Source of the DNA: Patescibacteria group bacterium
Lineage (GTDB): Bacteria > Patescibacteriota > Patescibacteriia > Magasanikbacterales > UBA922
Length of the DNA stretch: 64,000 nt
Reading direction: 5' to 3'
Assembly (NCBI GenBank): GCA_041658785.1
Contig: JBAZZL010000001.1
Span: 5,478 to 69,477, forward strand
The notes under the pieces are model-generated. The model made no database searches and was not told the origin of the DNA. It saw nothing but the letters and a program-made list of their open reading frames with translations. This document shows, piece after piece, positions 24,120 through 55,460 of the stretch. Position numbers and translations under genes: made by a program. The stretch's first letter is position 1. Each line of letters opens with the position of its first letter.

Positions 24120-24206
24120 AAAACATGATGCACGAGGCACGTAGCACGACTCATTTTGGACAATTTGTCGTGCGTCGTGCTGTGTGCATCGTGCCTCGTG
24201 AATAAG
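24120..24206. repeat. MITE-like family 2 (catgatgcacgaggcacg ... ttggacaatt ... cgtgcctcgtg), between tRNA-Pro and tRNA-Phe
   Basis: Imperfect inverted repeat around the ttggacaatt core. Homologous copies at 50968-51059 and 52640-52790, partial at 51136-51175 and 43640-43680. Confidence 0.65.
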
Positions 24207-24278
24207 TGCCGAGGGCGAGGATCGAACTCGCGACGCAAGGATTTTCAGTCCTTCGCTCTACCACTGAGCTACCTCGGC
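24207..24278 (-). tRNA. tRNA-Phe (GAA)
   Basis: Reverse complement GCCGAGGTAGCTCAGTGGTAGAGC...anticodon loop CTGAAAA...GAGTTCGATCCTCGCCCTCGGCA. Confidence 0.85.
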
Positions 24279-24279
24279 G

Positions 24280-24358
24280 TTACGGATTACGGATAATCCT
24301 GATTTACGGATATGGCGAAATTGTCATCCGTAAATCAGGATTATCCGTAATCCGTAAG
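24280..24358. repeat. Perfect 35-bp-arm hairpin (ttacggattacggataatcctgatttacggat ... atccgtaaatcaggattatccgtaatccgtaa) between tRNA-Phe and tRNA-Ala
   Basis: Read directly. Contains the ttacgg/aatccgta motif that recurs at 11576, 26300 and 46160. Confidence 0.85.
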
Positions 24359-24361
24359 CAG

Positions 24362-24434
24362 TGGACCCGAGCGGATTCGAACCGCTGACCTCCGCGATGC
24401 AAACGCGGCGCTATACCAGCTAAGCTACGGGCCC
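24362..24434 (-). tRNA. tRNA-Ala (TGC)
   Basis: Reverse complement GGGCCCGTAGCTTAGCTGGTATAGCGCCGCGTTTGCATCGCGG...GGTTCGAATCCGCTCGGGTCCA; G3:U70 present. Confidence 0.85.
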
Positions 24435-24544
24435 ATATCAGTTAGAGAGTTCATAAAGTTTATGAACTTTATGAACTTTTTGAACTTCGGGGCAAATTAT
24501 AACAGCTAAAAGACCCAAATGTCAAGGAAGTTAGAAGAGTGTTA

Positions 24545-26239
24545 TTAGTGATGAGTTCCCGCGGTAAAGCGCAGTTTCATTTCTTCTTTTTGTTCGCGGC
24601 GTAGAAGTTCAAAAGTTTTTTTGGTCCAAGGAGAATCTTTGAGCACCGAGGCTACCCAGTTGCCGCCAAGAAGATGCGGCATCATTACATAATCGGCTCC
24701 AGCGTCATATAGTTCTTTGAGATAAGTATTGTGGTAAAGATTCGCGATGATGTTAGTTTTAGAATTCAGGCTCTTGATGTGTTTGATCATAACTAATTGA
24801 TCGTCAGGTTCGGGCAAAGTAGAAACCACTAGTTTTGCTTCAGACAGCGGTAAAGAAGAAAGAAATTCAACATCAGCCGCATCGCCAAAATAACAAGGAA
24901 TACCGCGGTGTTTTAATTTTTGGATGGCATCAGGATTAAAGTCCACGACCGCGAAAGTAATTTTCTTTTCCGCCAAGGCTTCACACAGCTTCCAGCCAAT
25001 GCGGTGGTAGCCAAAAATAATTACCTCATATTTTTTGCCCACATCTTCTTTTTGGAGATGTTTATCTTTACCAAAGATATTGAAAAAAGGAATTAAGAAA
25101 CGATATAGCTCTTCATTGTAGGTAATAAGGTAAGAAGAAATAAAAATAGTGATCAGCGCGACAATCGTAAAGGTGGGCAATTCTAATCCACCCAGATGGC
25201 CCGCCAGCCCGCCGGTAAAAATTAAAATAAAACCAAACTCGCTTACTTGCGCGCCAGTAACGCCAGCCAAAAAACTATTGCGGCGGGAGAATTTTTGCAT
25301 TCTGAATAAATGATATAGGATGAGCGGTTTAATAAATAAAATGAAAGCGGCCAAAATCAAGCCGGGCATTAAAATTTTATTTATTCCCGCCAAGCTCATT
25401 TCACTGCCTAAAATGATAAAGAACAAAATAATGAAAAAGTCGCGCAAAGGCCTGACGCGGCTCGCGATCTGTGTTTGATATGGGGAAGAGCCTAGTGATA
25501 ATCCCGCAATTACGGCGCCTATTTCTATTGAAAATCCCGCCCAGTATAGCAGGCTGGCAACGCCAAAACACCAAGCAATGGTAAAGATAAACAAAAACTC
25601 GCTGGATTTGGCGACATGGTCAAGCAGTCTTGGCAAGAGATAACGGGATAAAAAGAAAACTATAGCGACTAAAATAAATCCTCGCACCAGCAAATCTATC
25701 GCGCTGCCAGACGGCATCCCCGCGCCGCTGGCAGAAGTAATAAAAAGCATGAGGATGATGGCGATAATATCTTGGACAATCATGAGACCGAGGGTGTGCC
25801 GGCCATAAGCGGATTCAGCGTCTTTTTTTTCATTCAGAAGCTTGACAATAATAATCGTGCTGGAAAAAATGATCGCGACGCCAAGATATAAAGCGGATAA
25901 TACCGGGAAATTTAGATAGCGCAAAAGTAAAAAACCGATCGCGCCGGTAAGAACAAACTGAACCAGACCAGTAACCACAGCCACCCGGCCGATTTTTTTA
26001 ATATGGCTGATATTCAAACTCAAACCGACAACAAAAAGAAGCAAGACCACGCCGAATTCAGCGAAAGCGTTGTATGCTTTTTGATCTCCGGCAACGAGAT
26101 TCAAAAAAAGCGGGCCAGCGATTATTCCGGCGACAATATACGCGCTCATCAGTGGTTGGCGAAGCAGGCGCATGACGGCGGCAATTGTGACGGTGATGCC
26201 GAGGAGAATGCTGAGTTGGAAGAAGATGTTGTCAATCAT
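24545..26239 (-). CDS. Kef-type cation:proton antiporter with C-terminal TrkA-N (RCK) domain (CPA2 family)
   Basis: About 12 TM helices, then Rossmann GYHRIGWKLCEALAEKKITFAVVDFNP; 564 aa. Confidence 0.8.
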   Translation of the reverse strand: MIDNIFFQLSILLGITVTIAAVMRLLRQPLMSAYIVAGIIAGPLFLNLVAGDQKAYNAFAEFGVVLLLFVVGLSLNISHIKKIGRVAVVTGLVQFVLTGAIGFLLLRYLNFPVLSALYLGVAIIFSSTIIIVKLLNEKKDAESAYGRHTLGLMIVQDIIAIILMLFITSASGAGMPSGSAIDLLVRGFILVAIVFFLSRYLLPRLLDHVAKSSEFLFIFTIAWCFGVASLLYWAGFSIEIGAVIAGLSLGSSPYQTQIASRVRPLRDFFIILFFIILGSEMSLAGINKILMPGLILAAFILFIKPLILYHLFRMQKFSRRNSFLAGVTGAQVSEFGFILIFTGGLAGHLGGLELPTFTIVALITIFISSYLITYNEELYRFLIPFFNIFGKDKHLQKEDVGKKYEVIIFGYHRIGWKLCEALAEKKITFAVVDFNPDAIQKLKHRGIPCYFGDAADVEFLSSLPLSEAKLVVSTLPEPDDQLVMIKHIKSLNSKTNIIANLYHNTYLKELYDAGADYVMMPHLLGGNWVASVLKDSPWTKKTFELLRREQKEEMKLRFTAGTHH

Positions 26240-26246
26240 AATAATA

Positions 26247-26310
26247 CATACGAATTATACGAATGTACGGATACCATTATAAAAATTCGTACATTCGTAT
26301 AATTCGTAAT
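26247..26310. terminator. Long perfect hairpin (atacgaattatacgaatgtacg ... cgtacattcgtataattcgtaat) 3' of the LTD surface-protein gene
   Basis: Stem of 21 bp or more, read directly. Lies between the stop of the 26354 gene and the start of the kef gene. Confidence 0.55.
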
Positions 26311-26353
26311 CCGTATGTTGAGTATTATAGCAGAAAATGAGTAAATTGTCTTT

Positions 26354-31383: not shown

Positions 31384-31394
31384 ATTTTTATTTT

Positions 31395-33589: not shown

Positions 33590-34972
33590 TTATAATGATT
33601 GGGAAAATAATTTTTGTTTTATCAGTTCCAAATCTTGTTTTAACTTTAGATCGTTGTCAATATTGGTGGCAATTTTTGTGTGGGCATGCATTGCCGTGGT
33701 GTGGTCTCTTCCTCCCAGCTCATTTCCGATTGCTGGGTAAGAAAGTTTTAATTCCTCGCGCAGAAGAAACATTATTATCTGGCGGGGGAAAGACACTCTT
33801 TTCTCTCTGCTTTTTCCCAACAGATCCTCAAGAGCAACATCATAAAATTTTGCTATGCCAAAGATAAGCTCTCTTGGCGTTACCGATTTTTTTAGGGTTT
33901 GGCTTTCAAAACTGGCCAAGATTGATTTTACTGTTTCTTCGGTAGGTGTGCTGTTTTTGAGATCATGGTAAGCGGCGATTTTATTCAGCGCTCCTTCTAA
34001 TTCGCGGATATTGCTTTGGATAGAAGACGCGATAAGTTGCAACATTTCTTCCGACAAATCAAATTGTTTTTCTTGGCATTTTTTTTGCAAGATCGCCACT
34101 CTTGTTTCCATATCCGGCGGAGCGATGTCGGCAATCATCCCCCACTCAAAACGGCTGCGGAGCCGATCTTCCATCGCTGGAATGGCTTTTGGCGGCCGGT
34201 CGCTCGTAAGAACAATCTGGTTGCCATTTTGGTGCAGTTCATTGAAGGTGTGGAAGAATTCTTCTTGTGTTTGTTCTTTTCCGCTGATGAACTGGATGTC
34301 GTCGATGAGCAGTAGGTTAACATTCCGATAGCGCTCCTTGAATTCTTTTGCCCTGCCTTCTTTTACAGCGTTTACAAATTCGCCGGTAAATTTTTCAGAG
34401 CTTACATAAAGTACTTTTATTTGCGGATTATTTTCTAGCATTTTGTTGGCAACAGCCTGTATTAAGTGTGTTTTTCCAAGGCCGACGCCGCCATAGATAA
34501 ACAGAGGATTGTACGCATCTCCCGGACGGTCGGCGACCGCGCGCGCAGCCGCGTGCGCGAGCTCGTTTCCTTTGCCCACAACAAAAGAAGTAAAATTATA
34601 TTTTGCGTTTAGACCGAATTGAGAAAGTATCTGTTTTGTTTCACGAGAGTAAATCGGAGTTTGGATGCTGGAAACAGAAGCGTCCTTGGAAAAGGTACAC
34701 TCCAACTCCTGAATATGTTTAATGTTTTCAACCTTATATTCAATTTTTTTAATCCGTTTGTCGGTAATGCGCTCCAGAAGTCTGACAACATCAGGGTGGT
34801 ATTTTTTTTCTAGCCAGCTTTTTGTGAAAGTGTTTGGAACGCAGACAACCACTTCTCCATCTTTTGAAAATTGGCCAATTCCAGTATTTCTAAACCATGT
34901 GGTAAAGTTGGCTTTGGAGATTTTTAGTTCAAACTCAGCAAGAACAGCCTGCCAGATTTCATGATTAGTCAT
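33590..34972 (-). CDS. dnaA: Chromosomal replication initiator DnaA
   Basis: Walker A GGVGLGKTHL, sensor and arginine-finger region, C-terminal DNA-binding helix-turn-helix (ELKLSYPAIGNELGGRDHTT); 460 aa. Confidence 0.95.
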   Translation of the reverse strand: MTNHEIWQAVLAEFELKISKANFTTWFRNTGIGQFSKDGEVVVCVPNTFTKSWLEKKYHPDVVRLLERITDKRIKKIEYKVENIKHIQELECTFSKDASVSSIQTPIYSRETKQILSQFGLNAKYNFTSFVVGKGNELAHAAARAVADRPGDAYNPLFIYGGVGLGKTHLIQAVANKMLENNPQIKVLYVSSEKFTGEFVNAVKEGRAKEFKERYRNVNLLLIDDIQFISGKEQTQEEFFHTFNELHQNGNQIVLTSDRPPKAIPAMEDRLRSRFEWGMIADIAPPDMETRVAILQKKCQEKQFDLSEEMLQLIASSIQSNIRELEGALNKIAAYHDLKNSTPTEETVKSILASFESQTLKKSVTPRELIFGIAKFYDVALEDLLGKSREKRVSFPRQIIMFLLREELKLSYPAIGNELGGRDHTTAMHAHTKIATNIDNDLKLKQDLELIKQKLFSQSL

Positions 34973-39029: not shown

Positions 39030-39093
39030 TCATGAGGCAGGATGCACCCTTCGGCTTCGCTCAGGGCAGGCTCCGCACGACTCATAACAGAAT

Positions 39094-39120
39094 AAAAATC
39101 CCCTGATGGGGATTTTTATT
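39094..39120 (+). terminator. Rho-independent terminator (aaaaatcccctgatggggatttttatt)
   Basis: Perfect hairpin followed by a T-run. Confidence 0.75.
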
Positions 39121-39155
39121 GTATTGTGCTGCGTGTATCGTGCACCGTGATTCAG

Positions 39156-39227
39156 AGGTACGGGCGGGAATCGCACCCGCGTATAAAGGTTTTGCAGACC
39201 TTTGCCTTACTGCTTGGCTACCGTACC
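39156..39227 (-). tRNA. tRNA-Cys (GCA)
   Basis: Hand-folded: perfect 7-bp acceptor stem GGTACGG/CCGTACC, 3-bp D-stem, anticodon loop CTGCAAA, discriminator U73 (a Cys identity element). The T-loop TGCGATT is atypical (G55). Confidence 0.6.
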
Positions 39228-39714: not shown

Positions 39715-42432
39715 ATGCTAAAAGAGAAACAACGTTTTATCATCATTGACGGCAACGCCATTATCCACCGCGCTTATCACGCCCTGCCGCCCATGACGGC
39801 CAAAGATGGCACCATGGTGAACGCGGTCTATGGCTTTACTTCAATGTTGCTCAAAGTTATTAATGATTTGAAACCCACGCACCTCGCGGTTAGTTTTGAC
39901 GTGGCCGGACCGACGTTTCGCGATAAATTGTACGCGGATTACAAAGCTACGCGCGTGAAAGCCGACCAAGATTTGTATGACCAGATTCCGCTTTGTTATC
40001 AGATTGTGGAAGCGTTTGGGATTCCGATCTATACGAAAGAGGGATTTGAGGCGGATGATGTGATTGGGACGATAACCAAGAAACTGGAAACTGGAAATTT
40101 GAAATTAGATATTGAAGCGATTATTGTGACCGGCGACAAAGATATGTTACAACTCGTTGAAAATGAAAAAGTTGAAGTGTATTTGTTGCGCAAAGGAATG
40201 TCTGATTACCATTTGTTTGATGAGAAAAAAGTAAAGGAAGAGTTTGGTTTTGGACCGGAGATGATAGTAGATTACAAAGCCCTGCGCGGTGACGCATCGG
40301 ATAATATACCGGGGGTGAAAGGGATTGGGGAGAAGACGGCGACGGAGTTGATTACAAAGATTGGGGGGGTTGAAGATATTTACCGAAAGATTGAAAGATT
40401 GAAAGATTATAAGATTAGTGATTCGGTGATTAAAAAATTGGAAGATGGAAAAAGAGATGCGGAGATGAGTAAAAAGTTGGCAACGATTGATACGGACGTG
40501 AAAGGGCTGAAGTTTAGTTTGGATGATTGCGAGACGGGTCGGTTTGACGCGGGGAAGATTGAGGGGATGTTGAAGAAGTTTGAGTTTTTTTCACTGCTTA
40601 AACGTATCCCAGGAGCGAGCGTTGAAAATAAGTTACAAGTTACAAGTTACAAGTTACAGAATGAGAGTAGGAAAAAAATAGACGGCGGCATTGAAATAGA
40701 AATTATTAAGTCAGCCGATGAGGTTAAAAAGTTGGCAAACGAGATTAAAAAAGCCGGAGTTTTTGCGTGTAAAGAAATAGTTAGCGGGAAAAATATTATT
40801 GAAGGAAAATTTGAGGGGCTGGTTTTTGTGGTTGATGGAAATAGTTATTTTGTGGATGGGCGGTTTGACGAATTGGCGGAGATTTTTACTGATCAGAAAA
40901 TTTTACTTATCGGGCACGACCTCAAACAATTAATAAAGGTACTTCAATGTAACAATGAAACAATGAAACAATGTAACAATTTATTTGACACCATGATTGC
41001 TTCCTATGTTTTAAATTCCAGCACCAGAGCCCATGATTTGAAGGCGATTATAATGCGCGAGCTAGGCAAGGATCTGCCGGGAAGTTCTGATCAGGCCAGC
41101 TTGTTTGGAGTGAATCCAAAGATTGCGGCAGAAGAGTTAATTTTGGTTTTGCAAGTTTATCAAAAATATGACAAACAACTTAGTGAGATGGAAGATAAAG
41201 GATTGTTTGAAAAAATAGAAATGGCGCTGATTCCGGTTTTGGCGGAAATGGAATTAAACGGCGTGGCGGTTGATAAGGAGATGCTCGGGCGGCTTTCCAA
41301 AGAAGTGGTCAAAGATATTGACAAAGTTACTAAAAAAATCTGGCAAGAAGCCGGCGAAGAATTTAATGTGTCTTCGCCTGTTCAGTTGCGGGACGTTTTA
41401 TTTGAAAAAATGGGACTGCCGGCGCAAGGAATCAAAAAAGGCAAAACCGGCTATTCCACGGCCTCGCCGGAATTGGAAAAACTGCGGGGCGCGCACCCGA
41501 TTGTTGAATTGATTGAAGAATATCGGGAATTGGAAAAACTGCGCAATACCTATATTGACGTTTTGCCGAATTTAATCAACAAAAAGACCGGTCGCATTCA
41601 CACCACTTTTAATCAGGCAGTAACTACCACCGGCCGACTTTCCAGCTCAGATCCGAATTTACAAAACATTCCCATCAAAACCGAACTGGGGCGGGAAATC
41701 CGCAAAGCGTTTTTGGCGGAAAAAGGATATTGTCTGGTGGTGGCGGATTATTCCCAGATTGAACTGCGCATCGTCGCCTCGCTCGCCGAAGACAAAATTA
41801 TGATGGAGATTTTTGAACGGGGAGAAGACATCCATCAAGCCACCGCGGCGGCCATTAATGGCGTTGGTCTGGACAAAGTAACCAAAGAAATGCGGAGCGC
41901 GGCCAAAGCGGTTAATTTTGGCGTTCTCTACGGCATGGGGTCGTACGGATTATCCTGGCGGGCCGGAATTTCCCAGAGCGAAGCGCGGGAGTTTATTGCC
42001 AAATATTTTGAACAGTTTGCCGGAGTGAAAAAATATCTTGACCAGACGCTTGAATTTGCTAAAAAAGAGGGCTATGTGGAAACCCTGTTCGGCCGGCGGC
42101 GGTATATTCCGGAATTAAAATCCGACAATTTCCAAATGCGAAGCGCGGGCGAGCGAATGGCGATTAATATGCCGATTCAGGGCACGGCCGCGGATTTGAT
42201 GAAGATGGCGATGATTGAGGTGAGCGAAAAGATTAAAAGATTAAAAGATTATAAGATTGGAGAGGTGAAGATTATTTTACAAGTGCATGATGAGTTGGTG
42301 TTGGAGGTGAAGAAGGGGTTGGAAGATGAAATTTCTAAATTAGTAAAAGAAGCGATGGAGGGGGTGGCGAAGTTGCGCGTGCCGATTGGGGTGGATGTGC
42401 GGGTGGGGGCGAGGTGGGGGGAATTAAAATAA
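39715..42432 (+). CDS. polA: DNA polymerase I
   Basis: 5'-3' exonuclease domain (IIDGNAIIHRAYHAL), polymerase motifs A (LVVADYSQIELRI), B (RSAAKAVNFGVLYG) and C (LQVHDELVLEV). In-frame oligonucleotide repeats at 40385-40412, 40632-40659, 40951-40980 and 42226-42257. Confidence 0.95.
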   Translation: MLKEKQRFIIIDGNAIIHRAYHALPPMTAKDGTMVNAVYGFTSMLLKVINDLKPTHLAVSFDVAGPTFRDKLYADYKATRVKADQDLYDQIPLCYQIVEAFGIPIYTKEGFEADDVIGTITKKLETGNLKLDIEAIIVTGDKDMLQLVENEKVEVYLLRKGMSDYHLFDEKKVKEEFGFGPEMIVDYKALRGDASDNIPGVKGIGEKTATELITKIGGVEDIYRKIERLKDYKISDSVIKKLEDGKRDAEMSKKLATIDTDVKGLKFSLDDCETGRFDAGKIEGMLKKFEFFSLLKRIPGASVENKLQVTSYKLQNESRKKIDGGIEIEIIKSADEVKKLANEIKKAGVFACKEIVSGKNIIEGKFEGLVFVVDGNSYFVDGRFDELAEIFTDQKILLIGHDLKQLIKVLQCNNETMKQCNNLFDTMIASYVLNSSTRAHDLKAIIMRELGKDLPGSSDQASLFGVNPKIAAEELILVLQVYQKYDKQLSEMEDKGLFEKIEMALIPVLAEMELNGVAVDKEMLGRLSKEVVKDIDKVTKKIWQEAGEEFNVSSPVQLRDVLFEKMGLPAQGIKKGKTGYSTASPELEKLRGAHPIVELIEEYRELEKLRNTYIDVLPNLINKKTGRIHTTFNQAVTTTGRLSSSDPNLQNIPIKTELGREIRKAFLAEKGYCLVVADYSQIELRIVASLAEDKIMMEIFERGEDIHQATAAAINGVGLDKVTKEMRSAAKAVNFGVLYGMGSYGLSWRAGISQSEAREFIAKYFEQFAGVKKYLDQTLEFAKKEGYVETLFGRRRYIPELKSDNFQMRSAGERMAINMPIQGTAADLMKMAMIEVSEKIKRLKDYKIGEVKIILQVHDELVLEVKKGLEDEISKLVKEAMEGVAKLRVPIGVDVRVGARWGELK

Positions 42433-42968
42433 ACGAGCGCACACGCGTTCCTTCTCCTCGTAGGAGAAGGACAGGTAGAGGTCTCAACGAGCGCATGGTA
42501 ACAAACGAGCGTATGTCAAAAAGAGATCGTTATATCATAGACGACCTGACAAAACAAAGACGAAAACGTTTGCGAATCGGTCCGACAAAAGCAGAGTATG
42601 TGCTGTGGCAGGATTTGAGAAGACAGAAAACCGGGTATAAATTTCGCCGACAAACAAGCATCGACAAGTTTATTGTTGATTTTTATTGTCATGAATTGCG
42701 TTTAGCAATAGAGGTGGATGGATCAATTCATTTAGATGATTTTCAGGCGGAATATGATAGGCGAAGAGAAGAATTTTTACGTCGCCGAGGGTATGTGGTG
42801 ATAAGATTTAAGAATGACGAGGTTTTGTTTGAGCGGGAGAGGGTGATGGGGGTGATTGACGAGTGGTGTAGCAGGTTGGCGGTTAAATATTGAGACATTT
42901 TTTATTGTGCCTGCGCTCGTTGAGACCCTTCCCTGTCCCCCGGACGGGGGAACTCGTTTACCCTCGTT
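42433..42968. mobile_element. Inverted-repeat-flanked mini-element carrying a DUF559 gene, inserted at the polA stop codon
   Basis: Left arm 42433-42492 (aacgagcgcacacgcgttccttctcctcgtaggagaaggacaggtagaggtctcaacgagcgca) and right arm 42912-42968 (reverse complement aacgagggtaaacgagttcccccgtccgggggacagggaagggtctcaacgagcgca). Shared ends, internal hairpins with compensatory sequence. Confidence 0.55.
42513..42893 (+). CDS. DUF559 endonuclease-domain protein (Vsr-like / restriction-endonuclease-like fold)
   Basis: AEYVLWQDLRRQKTGYKFRRQTSIDKFIVDFYCHELRLAIEVDGSIH...RRREEFLRRRGYVVIRFKNDEV matches the DUF559 consensus. The ORF opens inside polA at 42414; the 42513 start is preferred. Confidence 0.7.
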   Translation: MSKRDRYIIDDLTKQRRKRLRIGPTKAEYVLWQDLRRQKTGYKFRRQTSIDKFIVDFYCHELRLAIEVDGSIHLDDFQAEYDRRREEFLRRRGYVVIRFKNDEVLFERERVMGVIDEWCSRLAVKY

Positions 42969-43735: not shown

Positions 43736-44575
43736 ATGAGCTGTAGAAGAATATCGGACAGATGTGATAAAATAGATATGATTCTTTTTATGTTCAACGA
43801 ATTGTTTCGCAATAAATACCGTATCGCATCAGCCCGCCATCCGAATTGGAATTACACGTCCGTTGGGCGTTATTTTGTGACGATTTGCACGGGCGGACGG
43901 ATTTGCCATTTTGGCAAAATTGAAAATGGTGGTATGATATTATCCCCGACGGGCAGAATTGTTCGGGAGGAATGGTTGAAAACGCCGCGAATTCGCGATA
44001 ATATAAAATTGGACGCGTGGGTGGTGATGCCGAACCATTTGCATGGGATTGTGGTGATAAAAACATTGGGGGAAAATAAAATGGCGGTAATGTCAGGTTC
44101 AACGACAAATGGCGGTGATGAAAACGTGGGTGATGGGAATGATGCGGGCGGTGGGGAAAACGTTGGTGACGGAATAAACGTTGGCGGTGGGAATAACGTT
44201 GGCGGTAGAGACGCCCCGCCGGGGCGTCTCTACGATTGCATTCCACCAAACGATTGCATTCCACCAAACGATTGCATTCCACCAAACGATTGCATTATTA
44301 CCAACGTTGACAATGCATCCGTGAACGCAATCAACCGATCGTCCAATACCGGCGGCCCCAATCCCAATTGGAAACCCAATTCGTTGGGTTCAATTGTCAA
44401 CCAATTTAAATCAATTTGCACCAAACGGATTCGTTCGGCCGGACATTCGGATTTTTCCTGGCAGGCGCGATTCCACGACCATATTATCCGCAACGAAATC
44501 GCGTTGAATAATATCCGCCGATATATTAAACAAAATCCCCAAAAATGGGGTACGGATTGTTTTCATGTTTTATGA
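43736..44575 (+). CDS. IS200/IS605-type Y1 (HuH) transposase, REP-associated (RAYT-like), with a roughly 100-aa low-complexity and palindrome insert
   Basis: HuH motif WVVMPNHLHGIVVI; C-terminal SWQARFHDHIIRNEIALNNIRRYIKQNP block. Insert = G/N/D-rich segment, 29-nt palindrome (44205-44233) and 4x DCIPPN from an 18-bp repeat (44231-44296). Confidence 0.6.
   Translation: MSCRRISDRCDKIDMILFMFNELFRNKYRIASARHPNWNYTSVGRYFVTICTGGRICHFGKIENGGMILSPTGRIVREEWLKTPRIRDNIKLDAWVVMPNHLHGIVVIKTLGENKMAVMSGSTTNGGDENVGDGNDAGGGENVGDGINVGGGNNVGGRDAPPGRLYDCIPPNDCIPPNDCIPPNDCIITNVDNASVNAINRSSNTGGPNPNWKPNSLGSIVNQFKSICTKRIRSAGHSDFSWQARFHDHIIRNEIALNNIRRYIKQNPQKWGTDCFHVL
44205..44233. repeat. Perfect REP-like palindrome GTAGAGACGCCCCGCCGGGGCGTCTCTAC inside the RAYT ORF
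   Basis: 13-bp perfect arms. A second copy with an added 18-bp direct repeat sits at 45215-45261 inside holA. Confidence 0.85.
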
Positions 44576-45708
44576 TTATATTTTTATACGGCCCGGACAC
44601 CTTCCGTAGCCGGCAACAATTGAAAAAAATGATCGCCAAGTTCAAACATGACCGCGACCCGCAAGGGCTGAATGTGGTTCGTTTGGACGCGGAAAAAGAA
44701 GAAGACACCCGCCGGGTTACGAGCGAAATTTTGGCTACGCCGTTTTTGGCCGAGCGGCGGATGGTGGTGATTGAAAATTTGTTAAATTCTAAACAGACGG
44801 ATTTATTGGAAGGGTTATTGAAAAGAATTGAAGAAAAAAAAATGCCGGAATCAAACGTGATTATTTTTTGGGAAGCGCTGGACGATCCGGCGCAAAAGAA
44901 AAAAGGGGATGAAACGGCAACGCCAAAAACCAAGGCGGCGAAAGAACTGTTCGCGCGTTTGCAAAAAGAAAAATACGCCCAGCGGTTTGAATTATTTTCC
45001 GGCGCCAAACTGGCGACCTGGATCGCGGGCGAAGTAAAAGAACGCGGCGGCGTCATTGACCGGCCCGCGGTCGATTATCTGGCCGCGAACGTGGGGGGCG
45101 ACATGTGGCGGTTGAATTCGTTGATTGGACAATTGGTGGCGTATTGTTATTCCGAAGGCGGCGACGGTGCGTTGCGTGGGGACGCCACGGCACATGGGGA
45201 CACCCCGGCGGCGGGTAGAGACGCCCCGGCGGGTAGAGACGCCCCGGCGGGGCGTCTCTACGCCGTTGACAGGGTTGCGGAGGCAATACGGGCAAAGGAC
45301 GTCCAATTGTTTCTAGACGAACGCGCCGACGACAACATTTTCAATCTGGTAGACGCCATTGTCGCGAAAAATCCCAAACAGGTTTTTGTCATGATTCAGG
45401 AACAATATAATAAAGGCGAGGACGCGCAGTATATTTTTGCGATGTTAATAAGGCAGTTTCGTATTTTGTTGGAACTCCGAGACATGTTTGACCGCGAAGA
45501 TAATATCCAGAGCGGCGTTCTGGCGCAAAAGTTGGGGCTCCATCCGTTTGTGGTGAAAAAATCACTGCCTTTGGTCAAGCGATACACCATGGCGGAATTA
45601 AAAAACATTTACGAACGCCTGCTTGAGCTGGATATCCAAACAAAAACCGGCCAGGGCGGCCAGTCGTTGTTGTTGGATATTTTCGTTGGGAGAATCTGCG
45701 CGGAGTAG
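44572..45708 (+). CDS. holA: DNA polymerase III delta subunit
   Basis: About 380 aa, clamp-loader delta-like N-terminal (IIFLYGPDTF) and C-terminal helical domains. ATGA overlap with the RAYT stop. Convergent with rpsT, a common arrangement. Contains an in-frame REP-like insert (AGRDAPAGRDAPAGRLY). Confidence 0.65.
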   Translation: MIIFLYGPDTFRSRQQLKKMIAKFKHDRDPQGLNVVRLDAEKEEDTRRVTSEILATPFLAERRMVVIENLLNSKQTDLLEGLLKRIEEKKMPESNVIIFWEALDDPAQKKKGDETATPKTKAAKELFARLQKEKYAQRFELFSGAKLATWIAGEVKERGGVIDRPAVDYLAANVGGDMWRLNSLIGQLVAYCYSEGGDGALRGDATAHGDTPAAGRDAPAGRDAPAGRLYAVDRVAEAIRAKDVQLFLDERADDNIFNLVDAIVAKNPKQVFVMIQEQYNKGEDAQYIFAMLIRQFRILLELRDMFDREDNIQSGVLAQKLGLHPFVVKKSLPLVKRYTMAELKNIYERLLELDIQTKTGQGGQSLLLDIFVGRICAE

Positions 45709-48496: not shown

Positions 48497-48499
48497 ATT

Positions 48500-48763: not shown

Positions 48764-48771
48764 AATACTAA

Positions 48772-49778: not shown

Positions 49779-49934
49779 GGGCGTTGTCCTACTTCTCCGC
49801 CTTTTCGGCAGGAGGTTCGGGGTTTGGCCGCCGAATGACCTGATTCGGCGGTTGGTTGGTGTAGGTGCGCATTGACCGGTCAAGGCCGAAACCCCCGCGG
49901 ATCTCATAGTGTATCCTCGGGATCCACACTTTTT
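49779..49934 (-). CDS. Small GC-rich ORF (51 aa) with a strong SD (AGGAGG about 7 nt upstream)
   Basis: Hand-translated MTRQKVWIPRIHYEIRGGFGLDRSMRTYTNQPPNQVIRRPNPEPPAEKAEK. Followed by the hairpin gcccgccccgaagtgaatcgaggcgggcg. No family recognised. Confidence 0.3.
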
Positions 49935-50114
49935 GTCTTGTCATGGCAAAACCTCCTAATTAAAGTTTTGCATATTTGTATATTTTGTAAATCATATTTA
50001 TCAATATATAAGTATAAGTTTGTTATAATTTGCTTATTTTTTATAAAATTATAAAATAATGTAAATTAAGATTGACATAATTTAAAGGATAAATTATAAT
50101 ATCATTGATATTAT

Positions 50115-50933
50115 ATGGACAAGAATTTAGAACAACTCGGTTTGGACAAAACAGAGTCAAAAATATATTTGGCTTTGCTTGAACTTGGCCCCTCAACCGT
50201 TAGTGAGATAACTAAAAAAGCCAGTGTGACGCGCACGCTTGGCTACCATGTGCTCCAAAAACTCGGCTGGTACGGGTTGGTGGATCGGGTTTCTGGACGC
50301 GGGAGCAAAATTATTTTTTCCGCGACGCATCCGCGCCAATTGGTTCAACACTTACAAAATAAAAAAAATACCTGGGAAAAAAAGTTGAAAGAGGCAGAGA
50401 AGCTCTTGCCAGAATTGATTTCTTTGTATAAAATTGCGGAGAAGCCGACGATTCGCTTCCAGGAAGGTTTGGTCGGGATTAAAAACACTTATAGCGAAAC
50501 CTTGGAATCAAAAACAGAGATTTTTTCTATTCTTGATATTGAGGGCTGGGATATTCCGGAGTTGCGCCAGTTTGGCAAGGATTACAACCGTGAACGAAGC
50601 AGACGAAGAATTAAAGAACGTTTTTTGATATTAGACACGCCCCAAGCCCGGGAATGGATGAAATTTTACAAGGGATCGTTAAAATACACGGATTATCGTT
50701 GGATTAGGTCGGATCAGCTACCCGGAATAGCGGAGTTCGGCGGGGAAATTAATATCTATGAGGATAAAGTGGCGATGATGCTCTTGAAAAAGCCCAACAG
50801 AATGGGTATAATGGCGCAGAGTTCGGCTTTGGCGAATATTTTGAAGGGGCTCTTTGAGCTCGCCTGGCAAGCAGGAACACCGGCGCGGAGAAAAAGACCC
50901 CGTAGTTCAACGGATAGAACAAGACACTCCTAA
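50115..50933 (+). CDS. TrmB-family transcriptional regulator (wHTH)
   Basis: N-terminal TrmB HTH (ESKIYLALLELGPSTVSEITKKASVTRTLGYHVLQKLGWYGLVDRV) plus a C-terminal domain. The ORF 3' end overlaps the tRNA-Arg gene by 38 nt, so the true stop is uncertain. Confidence 0.6.
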   Translation: MDKNLEQLGLDKTESKIYLALLELGPSTVSEITKKASVTRTLGYHVLQKLGWYGLVDRVSGRGSKIIFSATHPRQLVQHLQNKKNTWEKKLKEAEKLLPELISLYKIAEKPTIRFQEGLVGIKNTYSETLESKTEIFSILDIEGWDIPELRQFGKDYNRERSRRRIKERFLILDTPQAREWMKFYKGSLKYTDYRWIRSDQLPGIAEFGGEINIYEDKVAMMLLKKPNRMGIMAQSSALANILKGLFELAWQAGTPARRKRPRSSTDRTRHS

Positions 50934-50967
50934 CGTCTAGATACAGGTTCAATTCCTGTCGGGGTCA
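50896..50967 (+). tRNA. tRNA-Arg (CCT)
   Basis: Hand-folded: perfect 7-bp acceptor GACCCCG/CGGGGTC, D-stem GTTC/GAAC, anticodon loop CTCCTAA, T-arm ACAGG-TTCAATT-CCTGT, discriminator A. Confidence 0.75.
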
Positions 50968-51059
50968 CCGAGTTCATGATGCATGATGCACACAACACGA
51001 CCCAATTTGGACAATTCGTGATGAATCATGCTGTGTGCATCATGTATCGTGATAAAAAC
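50968..51059. repeat. MITE-like family 2 copy between tRNA-Arg and tRNA-Ala
   Basis: catgatgcatgatgcacacaacacgacccaatttggacaattcgtgatgaatcatgctgtgtgcatcatgtatcgtg aligns to 24123-24205. Confidence 0.65.
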
Positions 51060-51132
51060 GGGCTCGTAGCTCAGCTGGTAGAGCACGGCATTCGCATTGC
51101 CGGGGTCAGGGGTTCGAATCCCCTCGAGTCCA
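51060..51132 (+). tRNA. tRNA-Ala (CGC)
   Basis: GGGCTCGTAGCTCAGCTGGTAGAGCACGGCATTCGCATTGCCGGGGTCAGGGGTTCGAATCCCCTCGAGTCCA; G3:U70 pair present. Confidence 0.85.
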
Positions 51133-51237
51133 CTGTTTCGTGTTCATGATGTATAATACATGTAGCGTAATACATTACAATTGTATACACTAGTGTATAC
51201 AAAAATTGGTCAAAAGCCAATTTTTTATTATTTTGTC

Positions 51238-51440
51238 ACACGTGAAATAATCAATGGTATGAACCCCAGAATAAGCTTTGGGTCCTTGTTCCGCAACAAG
51301 CTGATGAGAATTAAATTGTTTTTTTGTCCGGCCCGTCTTCTCCAGCCCGCCAGCTGGCGGACGGGCGACGCAGGGTAAACTCCGTCAACTGGCGGAGACG
51401 GAACTTGTCCGGCGCAGCCCACAGGCGTAGACGGATTAAG
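51238..51440. repeat. Family 3 repeat copy (reverse complement of 31395-31500) split by a family-1-like insert (about 51300-51410)
   Basis: Termini align to both ends of 31395-31500. The insert carries cccgtcttctccagcccgccagctggcggacggg, related to 45-95. Confidence 0.65.
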
Positions 51441-51723
51441 GATTGATAAAATGTGTACAAATCTGTGGTTATGAGTGGTAGTATGTTAATAACTTTATCT
51501 GACTGGCAATAATAATCCTGCTATTTAAATTAAAAGGTTTTTTGTGGAACAAGAATTTAGAGATAAGTTTAAGATAAATAGGCGATTTAAGTTGAAAGAT
51601 AATAGATTTACGAAGCTATTTTAGATATAATTTATAAATTATTATTTATAATTTAGATATAAAATAATGTCGTACAATATAATATAGTTTATAAAGTTGA
51701 GAGCAGCGTTGAATAATTCAAAT

Positions 51724-51829
51724 GTCATTCCCGCCCCCGCCTGCGCGAGGATAAACTCCGGCGGGAATCCAGTCGCAATGCTGGATAAATTAGCCAATTT
51801 TCTGGATTCCCGCCTCCGCGGGAATGACA
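51724..51829. repeat. MITE-like family 1 copy
   Basis: gtcattcccgcccccgcctgcgcgaggataaactccggcgggaatccagtcgc ... ggattcccgcctccgcgggaatgaca. A related outer-arm remnant tttcgtaattcac lies at 51933-51946. Confidence 0.7.
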
Positions 51830-51993
51830 AATTAAAGCAAAATATCAATTATTCAACGGTCTAAAAGTTAAAAAGAAAGTAAGCAATCTGTCATTATGTG
51901 GTTGTCGCCGAATGACAATAAAGAGGTGGTTTCGTAATTCACAGTAATTACCAAACTTTTTAATAATCTTATTTTGTGGTATAATTTTTTTGT

Positions 51994-52650
51994 ATGAAAA
52001 AAATATTCACAGGATTAATAATCACTGCGCTGGTTTTGTGGACACAGCCAGTAAATACCGCAATGACTGGCGGGAGTTATAATATTCCTGTTGATAGTTT
52101 GATAATGTCAGAGGGTGATTTAATAATAGGCGGCAATTATTCGTTGGAGGGGGCGGTTGAGGGTATAAGCGCAGATGACACCAAGAGCGGAGGCGTCTAT
52201 TCATTGATTGGCGGTTTTGCCGGAGCGACTGGCTCCGGCTCATTAACCGTTTCTTTTAATAAAAGCTCTATCAGTCTGGATTTTGGAAGCAGTCCTGTTT
52301 CGATTGTTGCTAGCGACAGCTTGATACTTACTGTTACAGCCGACTCTATCACTGGATATGGCGCGACGATCTCTGAAAGCGGCAATTTGGCGTCAGGAGC
52401 GAATGATATAAACGACGTTTCCGATGGATCGGTTACGGCTGGTACAGAAGAATACGGAATTAGAACCAGCAGCGGCGATGGGTTGCTTGTAAGCGATACA
52501 GCGATTAATGGCTCGGTAGTAGTCGCATCTTCATATGTTCCAGTCTCAAATAGCCAAACTGCGGTTGTATTTAGCGCCGCCGCCTCGCAAAATACCAAGG
52601 CAGGCGCGTATTCCCACACTGTAACATTTACTATTACGGCCAATCCGTAA
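51994..52650 (+). CDS. Secreted protein, WxL-domain-like (C-terminal AGAYSHTVTFTITANP resembles the second WxL motif with W>F)
   Basis: Signal peptide. G/S/T-rich 218-aa beta-type sequence. C-terminal motif similar to AGxYxGTLTWTLxxxP of Gram-positive WxL surface proteins. Confidence 0.45.
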   Translation: MKKIFTGLIITALVLWTQPVNTAMTGGSYNIPVDSLIMSEGDLIIGGNYSLEGAVEGISADDTKSGGVYSLIGGFAGATGSGSLTVSFNKSSISLDFGSSPVSIVASDSLILTVTADSITGYGATISESGNLASGANDINDVSDGSVTAGTEEYGIRTSSGDGLLVSDTAINGSVVVASSYVPVSNSQTAVVFSAAASQNTKAGAYSHTVTFTITANP

Positions 52651-52766
52651 AAACATGATGCACGATTCACGCAGCATGACCCATGACATGATACATGAGG
52701 CAGATAGCATGAGGCAAGACGCGATGCATAATACGCGCAACAGGACTCAATTCGCCGTAATTCGTT

Positions 52767-55460
52767 ATGCATCATGCCGCGTGCGTTGCGCATCAGGTAG
52801 TTTGTATGTCTCGTTTTACCACAATCCTTTTATTTACTTCTCTAGTTTTGGGCAGTCTTTTTTTGGCCATGCCGTCCGCCATGGCCGTTACCATTTCTCC
52901 TGCGCGGCAAGCGGCAGTGATCAATCCTGGGCAGAGTCAGACAGTAATGGTGGAAGTGTTTAATGATGAAAGCGAGAGCAAAATTTTTGTTCCGGAGATT
53001 GATGCTTTTGCGATTGATGAGACAACCGGCGCGGCGATTTTTGGGCAGGAAGATGAAGCAAAAAATTGGATATCAGCGAACCCGCAAAAAATAGAACTGC
53101 GCCCCAATGAAGAGGGTGAATTTAATTTTATTATAGCTGTTCCTCTGGATGCCGAGCCAAGAAGCCGTTATCTTGGATTGTTTGTAAAACAAGAATCAAA
53201 AGAAGGCCGTGTGGCAGTAGATTCAAGGACAGGTTCGCTGTTATTTCTTCATGTTGCAGGCGTTGTTAATGAAGATTTAACGCGAGAAATATTTTCATTT
53301 GATCAAGATTGGACAACGAGCGGTCCTATTCAGCTGTCATTACGTCTGCGAAATAATGGCAACATCCATTTGATCCCCAAAGGACAGATTGTTGTTCGCG
53401 ACAGGCAGAACAATGAAATCAGAATTTTCACTATTAATCCAAGACAACGAAAGGTGCTGCCCAACGGCGCATGGGAAGATAAGTACGTTTTAGAAAGCGA
53501 GACAATAAAGGGGGCTTATGGTCCGATTCAAGCAACAGCGGAAATTATCTATGGGTTATCAGAAAAAAAAATTATGGATGTGGCAGTATTTTGGTTTGTT
53601 CCCAAATGGGCAATTGGTTTGGCTTTCATTCTAGCGCTTGGCGCAGCCATTATTTTTATTTGTTTCCGCCCGCCAAATCGGCGGGCGGGCGGCGCTCGGA
53701 ATGACAAACGCGCAAATCCTAAAAGTAATAGAAATAGAATTATGAGCCGAGATAGAAAAATTTTATTATCAACCATGAGTGTGTTATCGGCTTTCTTTTT
53801 TTTGTTTTTTGTTCATGCGGCGCAAACGGCTACCAGCCAAATTGATGTGAACGCGACAATTACCGCTATTTGCGGCAATGGGAGTATTGATAGCGGCGAA
53901 GAATGCGATGACGGTAATATTATAAATGGAGATGGGTGTTCTTCAGTTTGTAAAACAGAAAGCAGCGGAGGCGGTGCGTTGCCAGTCGCACCTCCAGTAG
54001 AGCCGCCGGTTGAACCTCCGGTTGAACCGCCAGTAGAGCCGCCAGTAGAGCCGCAGGTTGAACCTCCGGTTGAACCGCCAGTAGAGCCGCCGGTTGAATC
54101 AGCATTTCATACTTCGCCAGGCGCTGGATCATCTGTCAGCGGCGCGTATATTCCTTTGCCGGTTGAGGATGTTATTGATAATGAATTGAATCTTAATCAA
54201 AGCGAACCCGAAAAAAAAATTGTTAATATTTTTCAGAAGAAAGCGAGGGAATTTGTCCAAAATGCGTTTAAATTTTTAGGTCTGGAACAGACTGCTAAAA
54301 AAATTGGCGAGCAGGCGGTGAAAATGATTGGGATGTTCAAGAGAACAGCAGATAATCCTATAGTTGAAAAAACAACAAGAAGACTGATTGCGCCAGGTGT
54401 TGTGGCCACTTCTGTTATTATAGTAACGCCATCGTTGTGGAGTATTCTTTTTCCTTTGCTGCGTTTTCTATTTCTGCAGCCATTGCTATTGCTTGGCAAA
54501 AGAAAGAGAAAAGAGTGGGGGGCGGTGTATAACAGTTTGACAAAAATGCCGCTTGATTTAGCAACTGTTCGGCTGATAGATCCAAAGACGCGCAAAATTC
54601 TTCAATCTCGGGTTACGGATAGAAAAGGAAGATTTTTATTTATTGCCGAGCCGGGCGACTATACGTTGGAAGCGGCCAAGCAAGGATTTCAATACCCAAC
54701 GAAATTGCTGGCAGGAATTAATGAAGATGGAAGAATTACGGATGTGTACCATGCCGAGCTCATACATGTAGAAGAAGCAAATACAAGCATAACTCCAAAT
54801 ATACCTGTTGATCCTGACGGGGAGACAAAACCTATTCGCCGCGTTGTCTTGGAGAGCAGGGTGCGAGTGGTACAGCATACGGTCTCCGTTTTTGGCATCG
54901 CGGCGACACTCATCGCTTTTTACATTAGTCCGGTGTGGTACGTGGCGGTTTTTCTCGCGGCGCATATTGGTTTGTATATTCTTTTCATTCATTATGTTAA
55001 GCCAAAGAAACCAAAGGGTTGGGGCATTGTCTATGATCAGTATGATAAAAAACCAATTGGCAGAACAGTCGCCAGGCTGTTTAGCAAAGAATACAATAAA
55101 TTGGCAGCGACAGAGCTGACTGATAAAAAAGGCCGGTACGCCTTTCTTGCGGGGCCAAATGATTATTATGTGACATTTGAAAAAGAAGGGTATAAAGAAG
55201 GGCGCACCAAGGACATCAATTTGAAAGAAGCAGAAGATGTTATTGTCAAAGAAGATGTTTCAATGGAAAAGAAAGGTGATGATTCAGCAAGTTTGTCTGG
55301 CAAGCAAATGCTGTCCAGCTATGAGAAAGTTTCTGATTTTATTGATAGCCAAAAGAGCGGAGAAGCAACAAAAGTAAAAGTAGACGAAGAGAAAAAAGCT
55401 TCGCCCGTTTCTCCTGCCGATAAATCTGAAGAGAGCGAAGACGCTGGTAATAAAAAATAG
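52767..55460 (+). CDS. Large surface/membrane protein: signal peptide, ectodomain of about 270 aa, TM, myxo-type Cys-rich repeat, (PVEPP)n linker, TM helices, two carboxypeptidase-regulatory-like domains, acidic tail
   Basis: CGNGSIDSGEECDDGNIINGDGCSSVC (TIGR02232-like). PPVEPPVEP x about 10 (54000-54100). VRLIDPKTRKILQSRVTDRKGRFLFIAEPGDYTLEAAKQGF and ARLFSKEYNKLAATELTDKKGRYAFLAGPNDYYVTFEKEGY (CarbopepD_reg-like). Confidence 0.7.
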   Translation: MHHAACVAHQVVCMSRFTTILLFTSLVLGSLFLAMPSAMAVTISPARQAAVINPGQSQTVMVEVFNDESESKIFVPEIDAFAIDETTGAAIFGQEDEAKNWISANPQKIELRPNEEGEFNFIIAVPLDAEPRSRYLGLFVKQESKEGRVAVDSRTGSLLFLHVAGVVNEDLTREIFSFDQDWTTSGPIQLSLRLRNNGNIHLIPKGQIVVRDRQNNEIRIFTINPRQRKVLPNGAWEDKYVLESETIKGAYGPIQATAEIIYGLSEKKIMDVAVFWFVPKWAIGLAFILALGAAIIFICFRPPNRRAGGARNDKRANPKSNRNRIMSRDRKILLSTMSVLSAFFFLFFVHAAQTATSQIDVNATITAICGNGSIDSGEECDDGNIINGDGCSSVCKTESSGGGALPVAPPVEPPVEPPVEPPVEPPVEPQVEPPVEPPVEPPVESAFHTSPGAGSSVSGAYIPLPVEDVIDNELNLNQSEPEKKIVNIFQKKAREFVQNAFKFLGLEQTAKKIGEQAVKMIGMFKRTADNPIVEKTTRRLIAPGVVATSVIIVTPSLWSILFPLLRFLFLQPLLLLGKRKRKEWGAVYNSLTKMPLDLATVRLIDPKTRKILQSRVTDRKGRFLFIAEPGDYTLEAAKQGFQYPTKLLAGINEDGRITDVYHAELIHVEEANTSITPNIPVDPDGETKPIRRVVLESRVRVVQHTVSVFGIAATLIAFYISPVWYVAVFLAAHIGLYILFIHYVKPKKPKGWGIVYDQYDKKPIGRTVARLFSKEYNKLAATELTDKKGRYAFLAGPNDYYVTFEKEGYKEGRTKDINLKEAEDVIVKEDVSMEKKGDDSASLSGKQMLSSYEKVSDFIDSQKSGEATKVKVDEEKKASPVSPADKSEESEDAGNKK

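Follow-up and report, generated by a model that had tools for sequence, protein, structure and literature searches.

A dispersed family of heptamer-built hairpin repeats is enriched at tRNA gene borders in a Magasanikbacteria-like bacterium

The DNA analyzed here, called the window below, is a 64,000-nucleotide stretch of contig JBAZZL010000001.1 (assembly GCA_041658785.1, positions 5,478 to 69,477). It is a segment of a bacterial chromosome carrying ileS, ruvA, gyrA, dnaN, dnaA, polA, and holA, and this report concerns a family of hairpin-forming repeats, assembled from heptamers of the general form CAYGANN, members of which occupy spacers between its tRNA genes. The host proteins are labelled "Patescibacteria group bacterium", and the nearest named homologues of PolA and of an antiporter belong to Candidatus Magasanikbacteria (60-69% identity). 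The host is a tiny-genome groundwater bacterium, a Magasanikbacteria-like member of the Candidate Phyla Radiation (CPR). Intergenic DNA amounts to ~9 kb, about 14% of the length of the window. The same strain was present in independent ENA, JGI, and Logan assemblies that were 99.95-100% identical, indicating that the hairpin repeats are not assembly artefacts. For counts within the same genome, the window was combined with 10 kb on each side (L210 and L212) and with L133, another piece of the same JGI contig, providing a sample of ~88 kb.

ARAGORN and Rfam agreed on six tRNA genes in the window, those of the two clusters lying where a preliminary description of this DNA had put them. On the minus strand, tRNA-Ala(tgc) (24361-24434), tRNA-Phe(gaa) (24206-24278), and tRNA-Pro(tgg) (24043-24119) form a cluster (24043-24434) preceded by a predicted consensus promoter (24496-24525, minus strand; TTGACA-18-TATAAT with a TG extension, 12/12 matches). 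This promoter is conserved in the related sequences L217 and L219, as seen in an alignment of the Phe/Pro junction (A4), and it implies that the spacers of the cluster are co-transcribed. On the plus strand, tRNA-Arg(cct) (50896-50969) and tRNA-Ala(cgc) (51060-51133) form a pair (50896-51133) located downstream from a promoter-like site (50784-50812, plus strand; TTGAAA-17-TATAAT, 11/12 matches). The sixth gene, tRNA-Cys(gca), lies on the minus strand at 39155-39227, with a member of the family on its 3' side and a GATTTTA tandem array on its 5' side.

All three inter-tRNA spacers of the window are filled by a long hairpin, as the preliminary description had stated. Two of these hairpins belong to the CAYGANN family, and the third, between tRNA-Ala(tgc) and tRNA-Phe, is a distinct hairpin built on TTACGGA. 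The long palindromes sit within the tRNA operons, downstream from consensus promoters. The ordinary terminators of this genome consist of a 5-10 bp stem followed by a T run and are placed after the last tRNA of each cluster, as observed at 51201-51234, after tRNA-Ala(ggc) in L210, and in the related sequences L215, L203, and L219. The terminator at 51201-51234 (plus strand), read from the sequence as AAAAATTGG-loop-CCAATTTTT followed by a T run, closes the Arg-Ala operon. The palindrome between these two tRNA genes is therefore not the terminator of the operon, and the earlier suggestion that the repeats might act as terminators did not hold.

The canonical unit of the family, defined from an alignment of ten copies (A2), spans 77-86 bp and consists of inverted arms of ~28 nt (26-30 nt) around a centre of 17-25 nt. 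Each arm comprises four heptamers in a fixed sequence, CAYGAKR CAYGAKR CACRYAR CAYGAYN, and conservation among the closest copies is highest at the centre, CAATTTGGACAATTCG. Among 72 heptamer units, the successive positions were occupied by C in 71, A in 68, Y in 68, G in 56, and A in 52 units, followed by two variable positions, a conservation that is partly circular since the search pattern itself demanded CAYGA. Tandem Repeats Finder reported period 7 at 16605, 24167, and 50975. In the ten copies, 91.8% of 243 cells were paired between the arms and seven pairs were changed on both sides. Covariation of the arms was modestly above that of shuffled alignments (0.220 versus 0.168, the observed value being reached by 2 of 500 shuffles). 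In the window, the pattern CAYGAKGCAYGAKGCAC with up to three mismatches had 17 matches for 0.88 expected, and the 26-nt arm pattern had six exact matches for 0.00 expected. Single arms and multi-arm clusters coexist with the inverted doublets. The copies fold on both strands into long hairpins (-37 to -44 kcal/mol, z about -6).

The first two copies fill inter-tRNA spacers entirely. Copy c1 (24120-24205) occupies the whole spacer between tRNA-Phe and tRNA-Pro and scored 90.3 bits with a covariance model of the CAYGANN hairpin family (R1). Its arms consist of CATGATG CACGAGG CACGTAG CACGACT and of an imperfect complement of this array, on either side of the centre CATTTTGGACAATTTG. Copy c2 (50970-51059; 97.1 bits) occupies the whole spacer between tRNA-Arg(cct) and tRNA-Ala(cgc). 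Identity between c1 and c2 is 78% over 85 nt, and both have the plus orientation, their tRNA genes being on opposite strands. These data, with pattern matches far above chance, bear out the initial proposal that a palindrome family occupies tRNA spacers.

A third copy, c3, had also been reported between two surface-protein genes. It is real and lies between the co-directional surface-protein-like genes 51994-52650 and about 52807-55460, but it is longer (about 52650-52801) and more complex than described, since it is an expanded, cluster-like member comprising three left-arm-like arrays, one loop, and one right arm. Its inner unit (52716-52801) scored 48.3 bits with R1, and its folding z was only -2.4.

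Two additional members of the window had been overlooked. Copy c4 (39030-39154) is a composite member located 3 nt from the 3' end of tRNA-Cys, in which outer family arms (matches at 39031, 39126, and 39133) enclose extra sequence, including a terminator-like short hairpin (39094-39119) nested in the loop (folding energies of -52.1/-45.3 kcal/mol). This nested insert accounts for the failure of the covariance model to detect c4. Copy c5 (16604-16634, plus strand) is a single arm, TCACGAGGCACGAGGCATACAGCACGACGCA, within ruvA. It is 94% complementary to the right arm of c1 and is read in frame in the flexible linker of RuvA as the peptide ITRHEAYSTTQ, without lengthening of the protein. A diverged arm is present at the same position of ruvA in L220, whose RuvA is 62% identical. 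With respect to variation in the number of heptamers within this one strain, four independent assemblies were 99.95-100% identical across both c1 and c5.

Beyond the window, the sample of the same genome contained a canonical copy located 11 nt from the 3' end of tRNA-Leu(taa) (96.9 bits), a single right arm directly 5' of tRNA-Ala(ggc) in L210, and two degenerate members away from any tRNA. The nine members found in ~88 kb, of which one is an intragenic arm, correspond to ~100 copies per Mb if the sample is representative.

Comparison with the nearest relatives revealed the corresponding junctions in an empty state. In L217, whose neighbouring antiporter is 90% identical, the same promoter, tRNA-Ala, TTACGGA hairpin, and tRNA-Phe are followed by tRNA-Pro after 0-1 nt: the window reads GGCAC|TTAT...GTTTT|CGGGG, for GGCAC|CGGGG in L217. 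In L219 (antiporter 69% identical), the Phe/Pro junction consists of AAAG, versus 86 nt in the window (A4). In L215, which is syntenic and encodes a PolA 67% identical to that of the window, TrmB and tRNA-Arg(cct) are followed by 8 nt, GTTCATTT, and then by tRNA-Ala(cgc) and a short terminator. A search with R1 of about 65 kb of the nearest relatives returned zero family members. Since in the relatives the members of these tRNA pairs are 0-1, 4, and 8 nt apart and the element is lacking, c1 and c2 are clean lineage-specific insertions. On this sequence comparison, the filled state appears to be derived, the element having entered spacers of 1-8 nt and left both tRNA genes intact. Survival at random in a 1-nt slot would be very unlikely given the ~9 kb of intergenic DNA available, which argues for a strong landing or persistence bias. 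Among the roles first proposed for the palindromes, that of insertion hotspots thus gained support from the orthologous junctions. That of processing signals is made less likely by the lack of the elements in relatives and by the opposite directions in which c1 and c2 lie with respect to tRNA transcription.

The association with tRNA genes extends beyond these two sites. In the ~88 kb of the same genome, five of the nine members lie within 15 nt of a tRNA gene, and seven of the eight tRNA genes touch a member; the family is not scattered without regard to tRNA genes. In related contigs, 11 of 48 distinct R1 hits were within 20 nt of a tRNA gene, versus 6 of 123 other strong inverted repeats of the same DNA (Fisher p=0.001, odds ratio 5.8), this control set having been obtained with a crude seed-based finder that missed most imperfect family members. 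In other contigs, members were found in Lys/Arg (three times), Thr/Tyr, Gly/Met, Glu/Met, Val/Ile, and Leu/Leu spacers. The filled tRNA spacers leave 0-8 flanking nucleotides on each side. The idea that the repeat specifically flanks tRNA genes must nevertheless be softened to one of enrichment, since about three quarters of the members are between protein genes and one arm is inside ruvA. The protein-gene members separate co-directional, divergent, and convergent pairs and fill whole gaps, often 0-10 nt from stop or start codons, as observed between SecD and SecF and next to rpsK.

Scans of genome collections and metagenomes provided counts that apply to the matches listed (at least 100 stretches for the metagenomes, without the copies of the window itself; the contig of L003 carries c1). 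Among the arm hits listed by the broad genome scan, only 5 of 112 had a tRNA gene within 150 nt. CAYGANN arrays with inverted partners were found at at least 104 loci, mostly in CPR lineages, for ~9 expected according to our own estimate based on pattern degeneracy and database size. The arm pattern had no match in the viral contigs of IMG/VR, and a phage origin of the family was not retained.

The TTACGGA hairpin (24279-24360), which fills the spacer between tRNA-Ala(tgc) and tRNA-Phe, is unrelated to the CAYGANN heptamers. It had been correctly singled out as different and as having perfect arms, although these arms are of 32 nt (24280-24311 and 24326-24357) rather than 35, with a 14-nt loop (-52.7 kcal/mol, z -12.7). 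An imperfect 90-nt version is present at the same junction in L217, and single arms of the TTACGGA family at other loci (L129 and L137) are 100% identical over about 35 nt. In the window as a whole, 18 of 36 intergenic regions had a folding z of -4 or lower, indicating that long hairpins are the rule in the gaps of this genome rather than a peculiarity of tRNA spacers.

We lean, with slightly better than even confidence, towards the interpretation that the CAYGANN repeats are copies of a small non-autonomous hairpin element, similar to the doublets of repetitive extragenic palindromic (REP) sequences known as REPINs or to miniature inverted-repeat transposable elements (MITEs), which arrives by insertion and either targets tRNA borders or survives best there. 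The borders of tRNA genes seem to be favoured by the element for landing or for survival, rather than to carry a tRNA-specific signal. The element would be mobilized in trans by some enzyme, and its insertion may be biased to the borders of tRNA genes, or it may survive only there, or both. Once inserted, the hairpin would be co-transcribed in the tRNA precursor, trimmed off by RNase P and the 3'-end processing enzymes, and discarded. An 85-nt hairpin would be harmless at these positions because whatever flanks the mature tRNA in the precursor is removed. Elsewhere in this tightly packed genome, it would be expected to disturb promoters, leaders, or translation. The hairpin would be neither the terminator of the operon nor a required processing signal. 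The orientation of c1 and c2 is independent of the strand of their tRNA genes, and among 12 tRNA-linked copies only 4 fold better on the tRNA-sense strand, which argues against a strand-specific RNA signal. Selection at the RNA level on the transcribed strand was rejected on the same ground, the 12 copies showing no folding bias between sense and antisense strands.

Several observations weigh against insertion of a mobile element. Comparison of filled and empty sites revealed no target-site duplication at c1 or c2. In an all-against-all comparison of 39 copies, the identity between different loci did not exceed 83% (17-40% divergence); thus, there is no sign of recent transposition, which was dismissed as an explanation. 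The strict C-A-Y-G-A periodicity goes beyond what hairpin formation alone explains. Among the open reading frames (ORFs) that were scanned or annotated, in roughly 83 kb of gene-called DNA, no Y1/HUH transposase was recorded. A member is present in the Lys(ctt)/Arg(tcg) spacer of three syntenic lineages in which the protein encoded by a flanking gene is only 74-76% identical, which looks like long-term retention and could mean function. The insertions could also stem from another route, such as templated repair or recombination. The retention at Lys/Arg, the presence of the ruvA arm in two lineages, and the strict periodicity are compatible with a domesticated function or with a heptad-reading protein.

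The search for a mobilizing gene was extended to other candidates. No gene for a REP-associated tyrosine transposase (RAYT) was recorded among the ORFs of the window, L210, and L212, nor among ORFs flanked by two members in related contigs. The latter encode SecF, a 23S-rRNA-intervening-sequence (IVS) protein, an endonuclease III-like protein, and similar products, and were discarded as mobilizers. The only transposase gene seen belongs to an rve-type insertion sequence (L212 3053-4141), the ends and flanks of which are unrelated to the family. Two further assignments of the repeats themselves were also discarded. Inspection of the sequence did not favour a promoter role for the TTGGACA centre or for the ...CGTGATAAAA ends, since a distance of 0-2 nt to the 5' end of the tRNA is wrong for a -10 box. 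Among curated RNA families (Rfam 15), only the six tRNAs reached the gathering threshold, the hairpins having sub-threshold similarity to generic miRNA-precursor models.

The family resembles several known systems without coinciding with any of them. REPINs are inverted REP doublets mobilized by RAYT transposases in Pseudomonas and Enterobacteria (PMC3116915, PMC3337134), the REP unit being a small imperfect palindrome of 20-40 nt with a conserved GTAG or CGTC end (PMC3733652). Like REPINs, the CAYGANN elements are inverted short repeats separated by a spacer that form a hairpin of ~80-110 bp, are non-coding and non-autonomous, lie mostly between genes and within operons, coexist as singlets, clusters, and doublets, and have diverged copies that seem long-lived rather than derived from a recent burst. 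They differ by arms that are direct heptamer arrays, which are not self-complementary and carry no GTAG or CGTC tag, by the lack in the DNA examined of a RAYT, which in REPIN systems is encoded by a cognate single-copy gene usually flanked by the repeats, and by their CPR host. The excess at tRNA borders is not a described property of REPINs. With MITEs, such as the Correia elements of Neisseria, the family shares a short non-coding structure with terminal inverted repeats and presence or absence at orthologous sites, c1 and c2 being absent from L217, L219, and L215. In contrast, neither filled/empty pair displays a target-site duplication, a related full-length insertion sequence was not found in the DNA examined, the copies have diverged by 17-40%, and the element amounts in essence to a single hairpin.

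The palindromic elements of Rickettsia, the subject of work by Ogata et al. in 2000, are reportedly located both between genes and in frame inside protein genes of a reduced genome. The similarity lies in palindromic repeats in a reduced genome, with one arm in frame here in the RuvA linker. The differences are that only a single arm is found in a gene and does not lengthen the protein, and that the sequence is unrelated and made of heptamer units. Elements that target tRNA genes include Ty3 in yeast, TRE in Dictyostelium, and bacterial islands at tRNA 3' ends, all of which are autonomous, several kb long, and equipped with known integrases or reverse transcriptases. In these systems as in the present one, insertions pile up at tRNA genes with little harm in a gene-dense genome, but here the inserted DNA is an 80-bp hairpin between adjacent tRNA genes. 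The omega repressor of plasmid pSM19035 binds heptad arrays; the arrays bound by omega and ParG are located at promoters and read by a ribbon-helix-helix dimer. They share with the CAYGANN arms contiguous 7-bp units in direct and inverted orientation, whereas the arrays described here lie between tRNA genes, downstream from promoters. Intrinsic terminators differ by a short G+C-rich stem with a U run directly behind it on the transcribed strand and by their position at the end of transcription units, the stems of the family being of ~30 bp and placed between co-transcribed tRNAs.

Heptanucleotide repeats have been described as the short tandemly repeated repetitive (STRR) sequences of cyanobacteria and as TAACTGA arrays in Beggiatoaceae (PMC4679880). 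The family has in common with STRR and with long simple sequence repeats (LSSR) head-to-tail 7-nt units, an intergenic location, many unit types, and a patchy phylogenetic spread. It differs by short arrays (four units) that are ordered, the third unit being different, and have an inverted partner, a conserved centre, and a dispersed family. Finally, arrays of tandem interspaced guide RNAs (TIGR) are made of 36-nt units in tandem, which carry two spacers and box C/D-like motifs, and adjoin a Tas gene encoding a Nop-domain protein (PMC12045711). Membership in TIGR-Tas systems was rejected, the CAYGANN members being single dispersed hairpins devoid of 36-nt tandem units, with no Nop-domain protein among the neighbours scanned.

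A functional role in the spacers is the alternative that we take most seriously, although we consider it unlikely. According to this explanation, the ~30-bp stems would be RNase III-type cleavage or insulation modules that part the tRNAs or protect their ends and are kept by selection. The exact filling of the spacers, with 0-8 nt left on each side, is consistent with this possibility, as is the Lys/Arg member of three syntenic lineages, for which the spacers of L083 and L185 are 78% identical while the adjacent coding DNA is about 72% identical. The weak covariation of the arms and the leader of the antiporter gene, in which the window and L217 keep a hairpin of replaced sequence (see below), point in the same direction. 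However, the same tRNA pairs are separated by short hairpin-free spacers in the nearest relatives, c1 and c2 are oppositely oriented relative to transcription, the sense strand has no folding advantage, and the element is also found between divergent protein genes and as single arms.

Rather improbable, in our opinion, is a scheme in which an active, structure-guided mechanism places the element at tRNA borders, for example through an enzyme reading the foot of the tDNA or tRNA acceptor stem. Processing would then release an RNA hairpin of ~85 nt with a conserved loop and possibly a role of its own, since RNase P and 3'-processing sites lie on either side of the element and may set free a discrete RNA. 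Precursors of small RNAs linked to tRNAs are known from some viruses and plants, and the released hairpin would be a bacterial counterpart.

Insertion of a hairpin element also has to be weighed against local mutational scars, an explanation to which we give marginally less credit still. The tRNA genes would be fragile sites of heavy transcription, breaks would be patched by slippage, snap-back synthesis, or template switching, and the heptamer arrays would be built in place. The window contains 88 tandem arrays of many unit types, of which 36 have a period of 7-8, and half of its intergenic regions have marked secondary structure. The absence of a target duplication and of near-identical copies fits this scheme, as do a possible microhomology at the c2 junction (GTTCAT in L215, GAGTTCAT|GATG in the window) and the partial tandem tRNA duplications found at tRNA loci of relatives. 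Units of 7 nt are reported to predominate among the long simple repeats of many bacteria, and slippage of the polymerase has been put forward as their origin (Mrazek 2007, via PMC4679880). Against these points, unlinked copies share an ordered four-heptamer arm and a 16-nt centre (A2), which indicates common descent rather than independent local birth, and single arms of the TTACGGA family are identical at different loci. The shared arm and centre make it unlikely that the elements arose purely in place, through slippage and snap-back synthesis.

The heptads might instead be protein-binding arrays acting at the DNA level, that is contiguous 7-bp operators for a dimeric protein, by analogy with the omega system, with hairpin potential as a by-product; we regard this as quite improbable. 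In both arms, the heptamer hardly varies at positions 1, 2, 4, and 5 whereas positions 6-7 are free, the arrays are widespread in CPR lineages and lack matches in viral contigs, and arms are kept at the nucleotide level inside ruvA in two lineages. Nevertheless, the arrays are placed between tRNA genes or cistrons rather than upstream from promoters, none of them is linked to a candidate binding protein, the conservation is in part a product of the search pattern, and the same genome harbors many other heptamer units.

Intrinsic termination or attenuation between tRNA genes is very improbable since, although c1 is followed by UUUU in the tRNA sense and the Lys/Arg copies of L083 and L185 by 7-8 U, A-rich sequence follows c2 (UAAAAAC) and the copies of L203 and L208, the long stems and large loops are unlike the short terminators of the genome, a consensus scan for terminators called none of the elements, and termination would silence a downstream tRNA that is the sole copy of that tRNA in the DNA examined.

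Other repeats of the window belong to different families. In the antiporter leader, the window (26240-26353) and L217 (2013-2134) both contain a heptamer palindrome of ~70 nt located between the same TGCTATAAT -10 box and the start codon. The units are unrelated (TACGAAT type and TTGTAAG type, respectively), and the sequence comparison indicates that a hairpin persists there despite replacement of its sequence. Tandem arrays of 7-10 nt units are pervasive (3627-3761, 11576-11603, and many others), including (TAAAGCAC)x17 between genes. A perfect (CTTACGG)x4 array inside ileS encodes GLTAYGLRLT, and several further heptamer arrays are inside ileS and polA.

The polA gene contains at 40378-40424 and 42222-42262 an in-frame 32-nt octamer-array module, GAAAAGATTAAAAGATTAAAAGATTATAAGATT, encoding the peptide KIKRLKDYKI. 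The module is also present in L215 (10384-10420) and L216 (10357-10393) and, in intergenic DNA, at 16174-16204 of the window. Its DNA is 100% identical in three species in which PolA is only about 66% identical and the flanking codons differ freely. It is located at amino acid 838 in the window, 129 in L215, and 120 in L216, with a variant at amino acid 228 in the window and L215. This distribution points to conservation at the nucleotide level or to repeated insertion of a tiny module in an essential gene. An ORF encoding a DUF559 protein with a Vsr-like endonuclease fold (42414-42893) overlaps the end of polA and is absent from this position in L215 and L216.

A 155-bp element located directly after the ileS stop codon (11993-12147) looks like a classical MITE, its 28-bp terminal inverted repeats being perfect. 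Its copies in L212 (8599-8756) and L112 (3228-3385), which come from the same genome or population, are 98% identical, whereas the CAYGANN family is old and diverged. Another palindromic family, (T)GTCATTCCCGC...GCGGGAATGAC(A), is found at 1808-1935, 8791-8871, and 51722-51831 and in L210 (19160-19285). Some of its arms, of 28-41 nt, are 100% complementary, and it is presumably the family counted as the first in the preliminary description. Period-18/36 tandem arrays (44110-44296) and a perfect 29-nt palindrome, GTAGAGACGCCCCGCCGGGGCGTCTCTAC (44204-44234 and 45232-45262), are located inside ORFs, namely an unannotated 279-aa ORF and holA.

Partial copies of tRNA genes, sometimes in tandem, were found beside intact tRNA genes in L208 (1950-2090), L219 (7876-7955), L218 (3940-3960), and L141 (4980-5030), one example consisting of three 45-nt repeats of the 3' part of tRNA-Val. 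The tRNA loci of the clade are general hotspots of rearrangement. The sequence L002 (ENA ERZ27249422, k141_505995) matches the window at 99.95% up to its position 17695 (window 23904), 140 nt before tRNA-Pro, and continues with diverged sequence, a different tRNA-Pro, and different genes. This switch at a tRNA cluster is either a recombination break or a chimeric join. In L197 (5871-6433), a gene encoding a 129-aa 23S-rRNA-IVS protein (PF05635, bAvd-like) is bracketed by two members of the CAYGANN family, and the window contains a faint match to PF05635 at 60441-60995. Three perfect or near-perfect DnaA boxes, TTATCCACA, are present in L210 (18810-18930), about 7.8-8.0 kb past the right end of the window, adjoining the tRNA-Leu copy of the family and upstream from rpsF-ssb. 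Since this cluster is ~37 kb from dnaA (33590-34972), the replication origin may not be beside dnaA.

Few known genomes are as compact as those of CPR bacteria (Patescibacteria), the non-coding DNA of which has hardly been studied. In the genome analyzed here, the short intergenic gaps are largely filled by hairpins made of 7-10 nt units, and at least one family entered gaps of 1-8 nt between intact tRNA genes. The marked preference of this family for tRNA borders is a well-documented case in a CPR bacterium that is unusual among REP-, REPIN-, and MITE-like hairpin repeats. The repeats may be of use to explain unusually long tRNA spacers, to type strains and lineages, and to flag breaks or wrong joins in metagenome assemblies. 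If the preference results from targeting, some enzyme or mechanism must recognize the ends of tRNA genes. If it results from survival, the family would provide a bacterial example of the "safe haven" logic by which the retroelements of yeast and Dictyostelium settle at tRNA genes.

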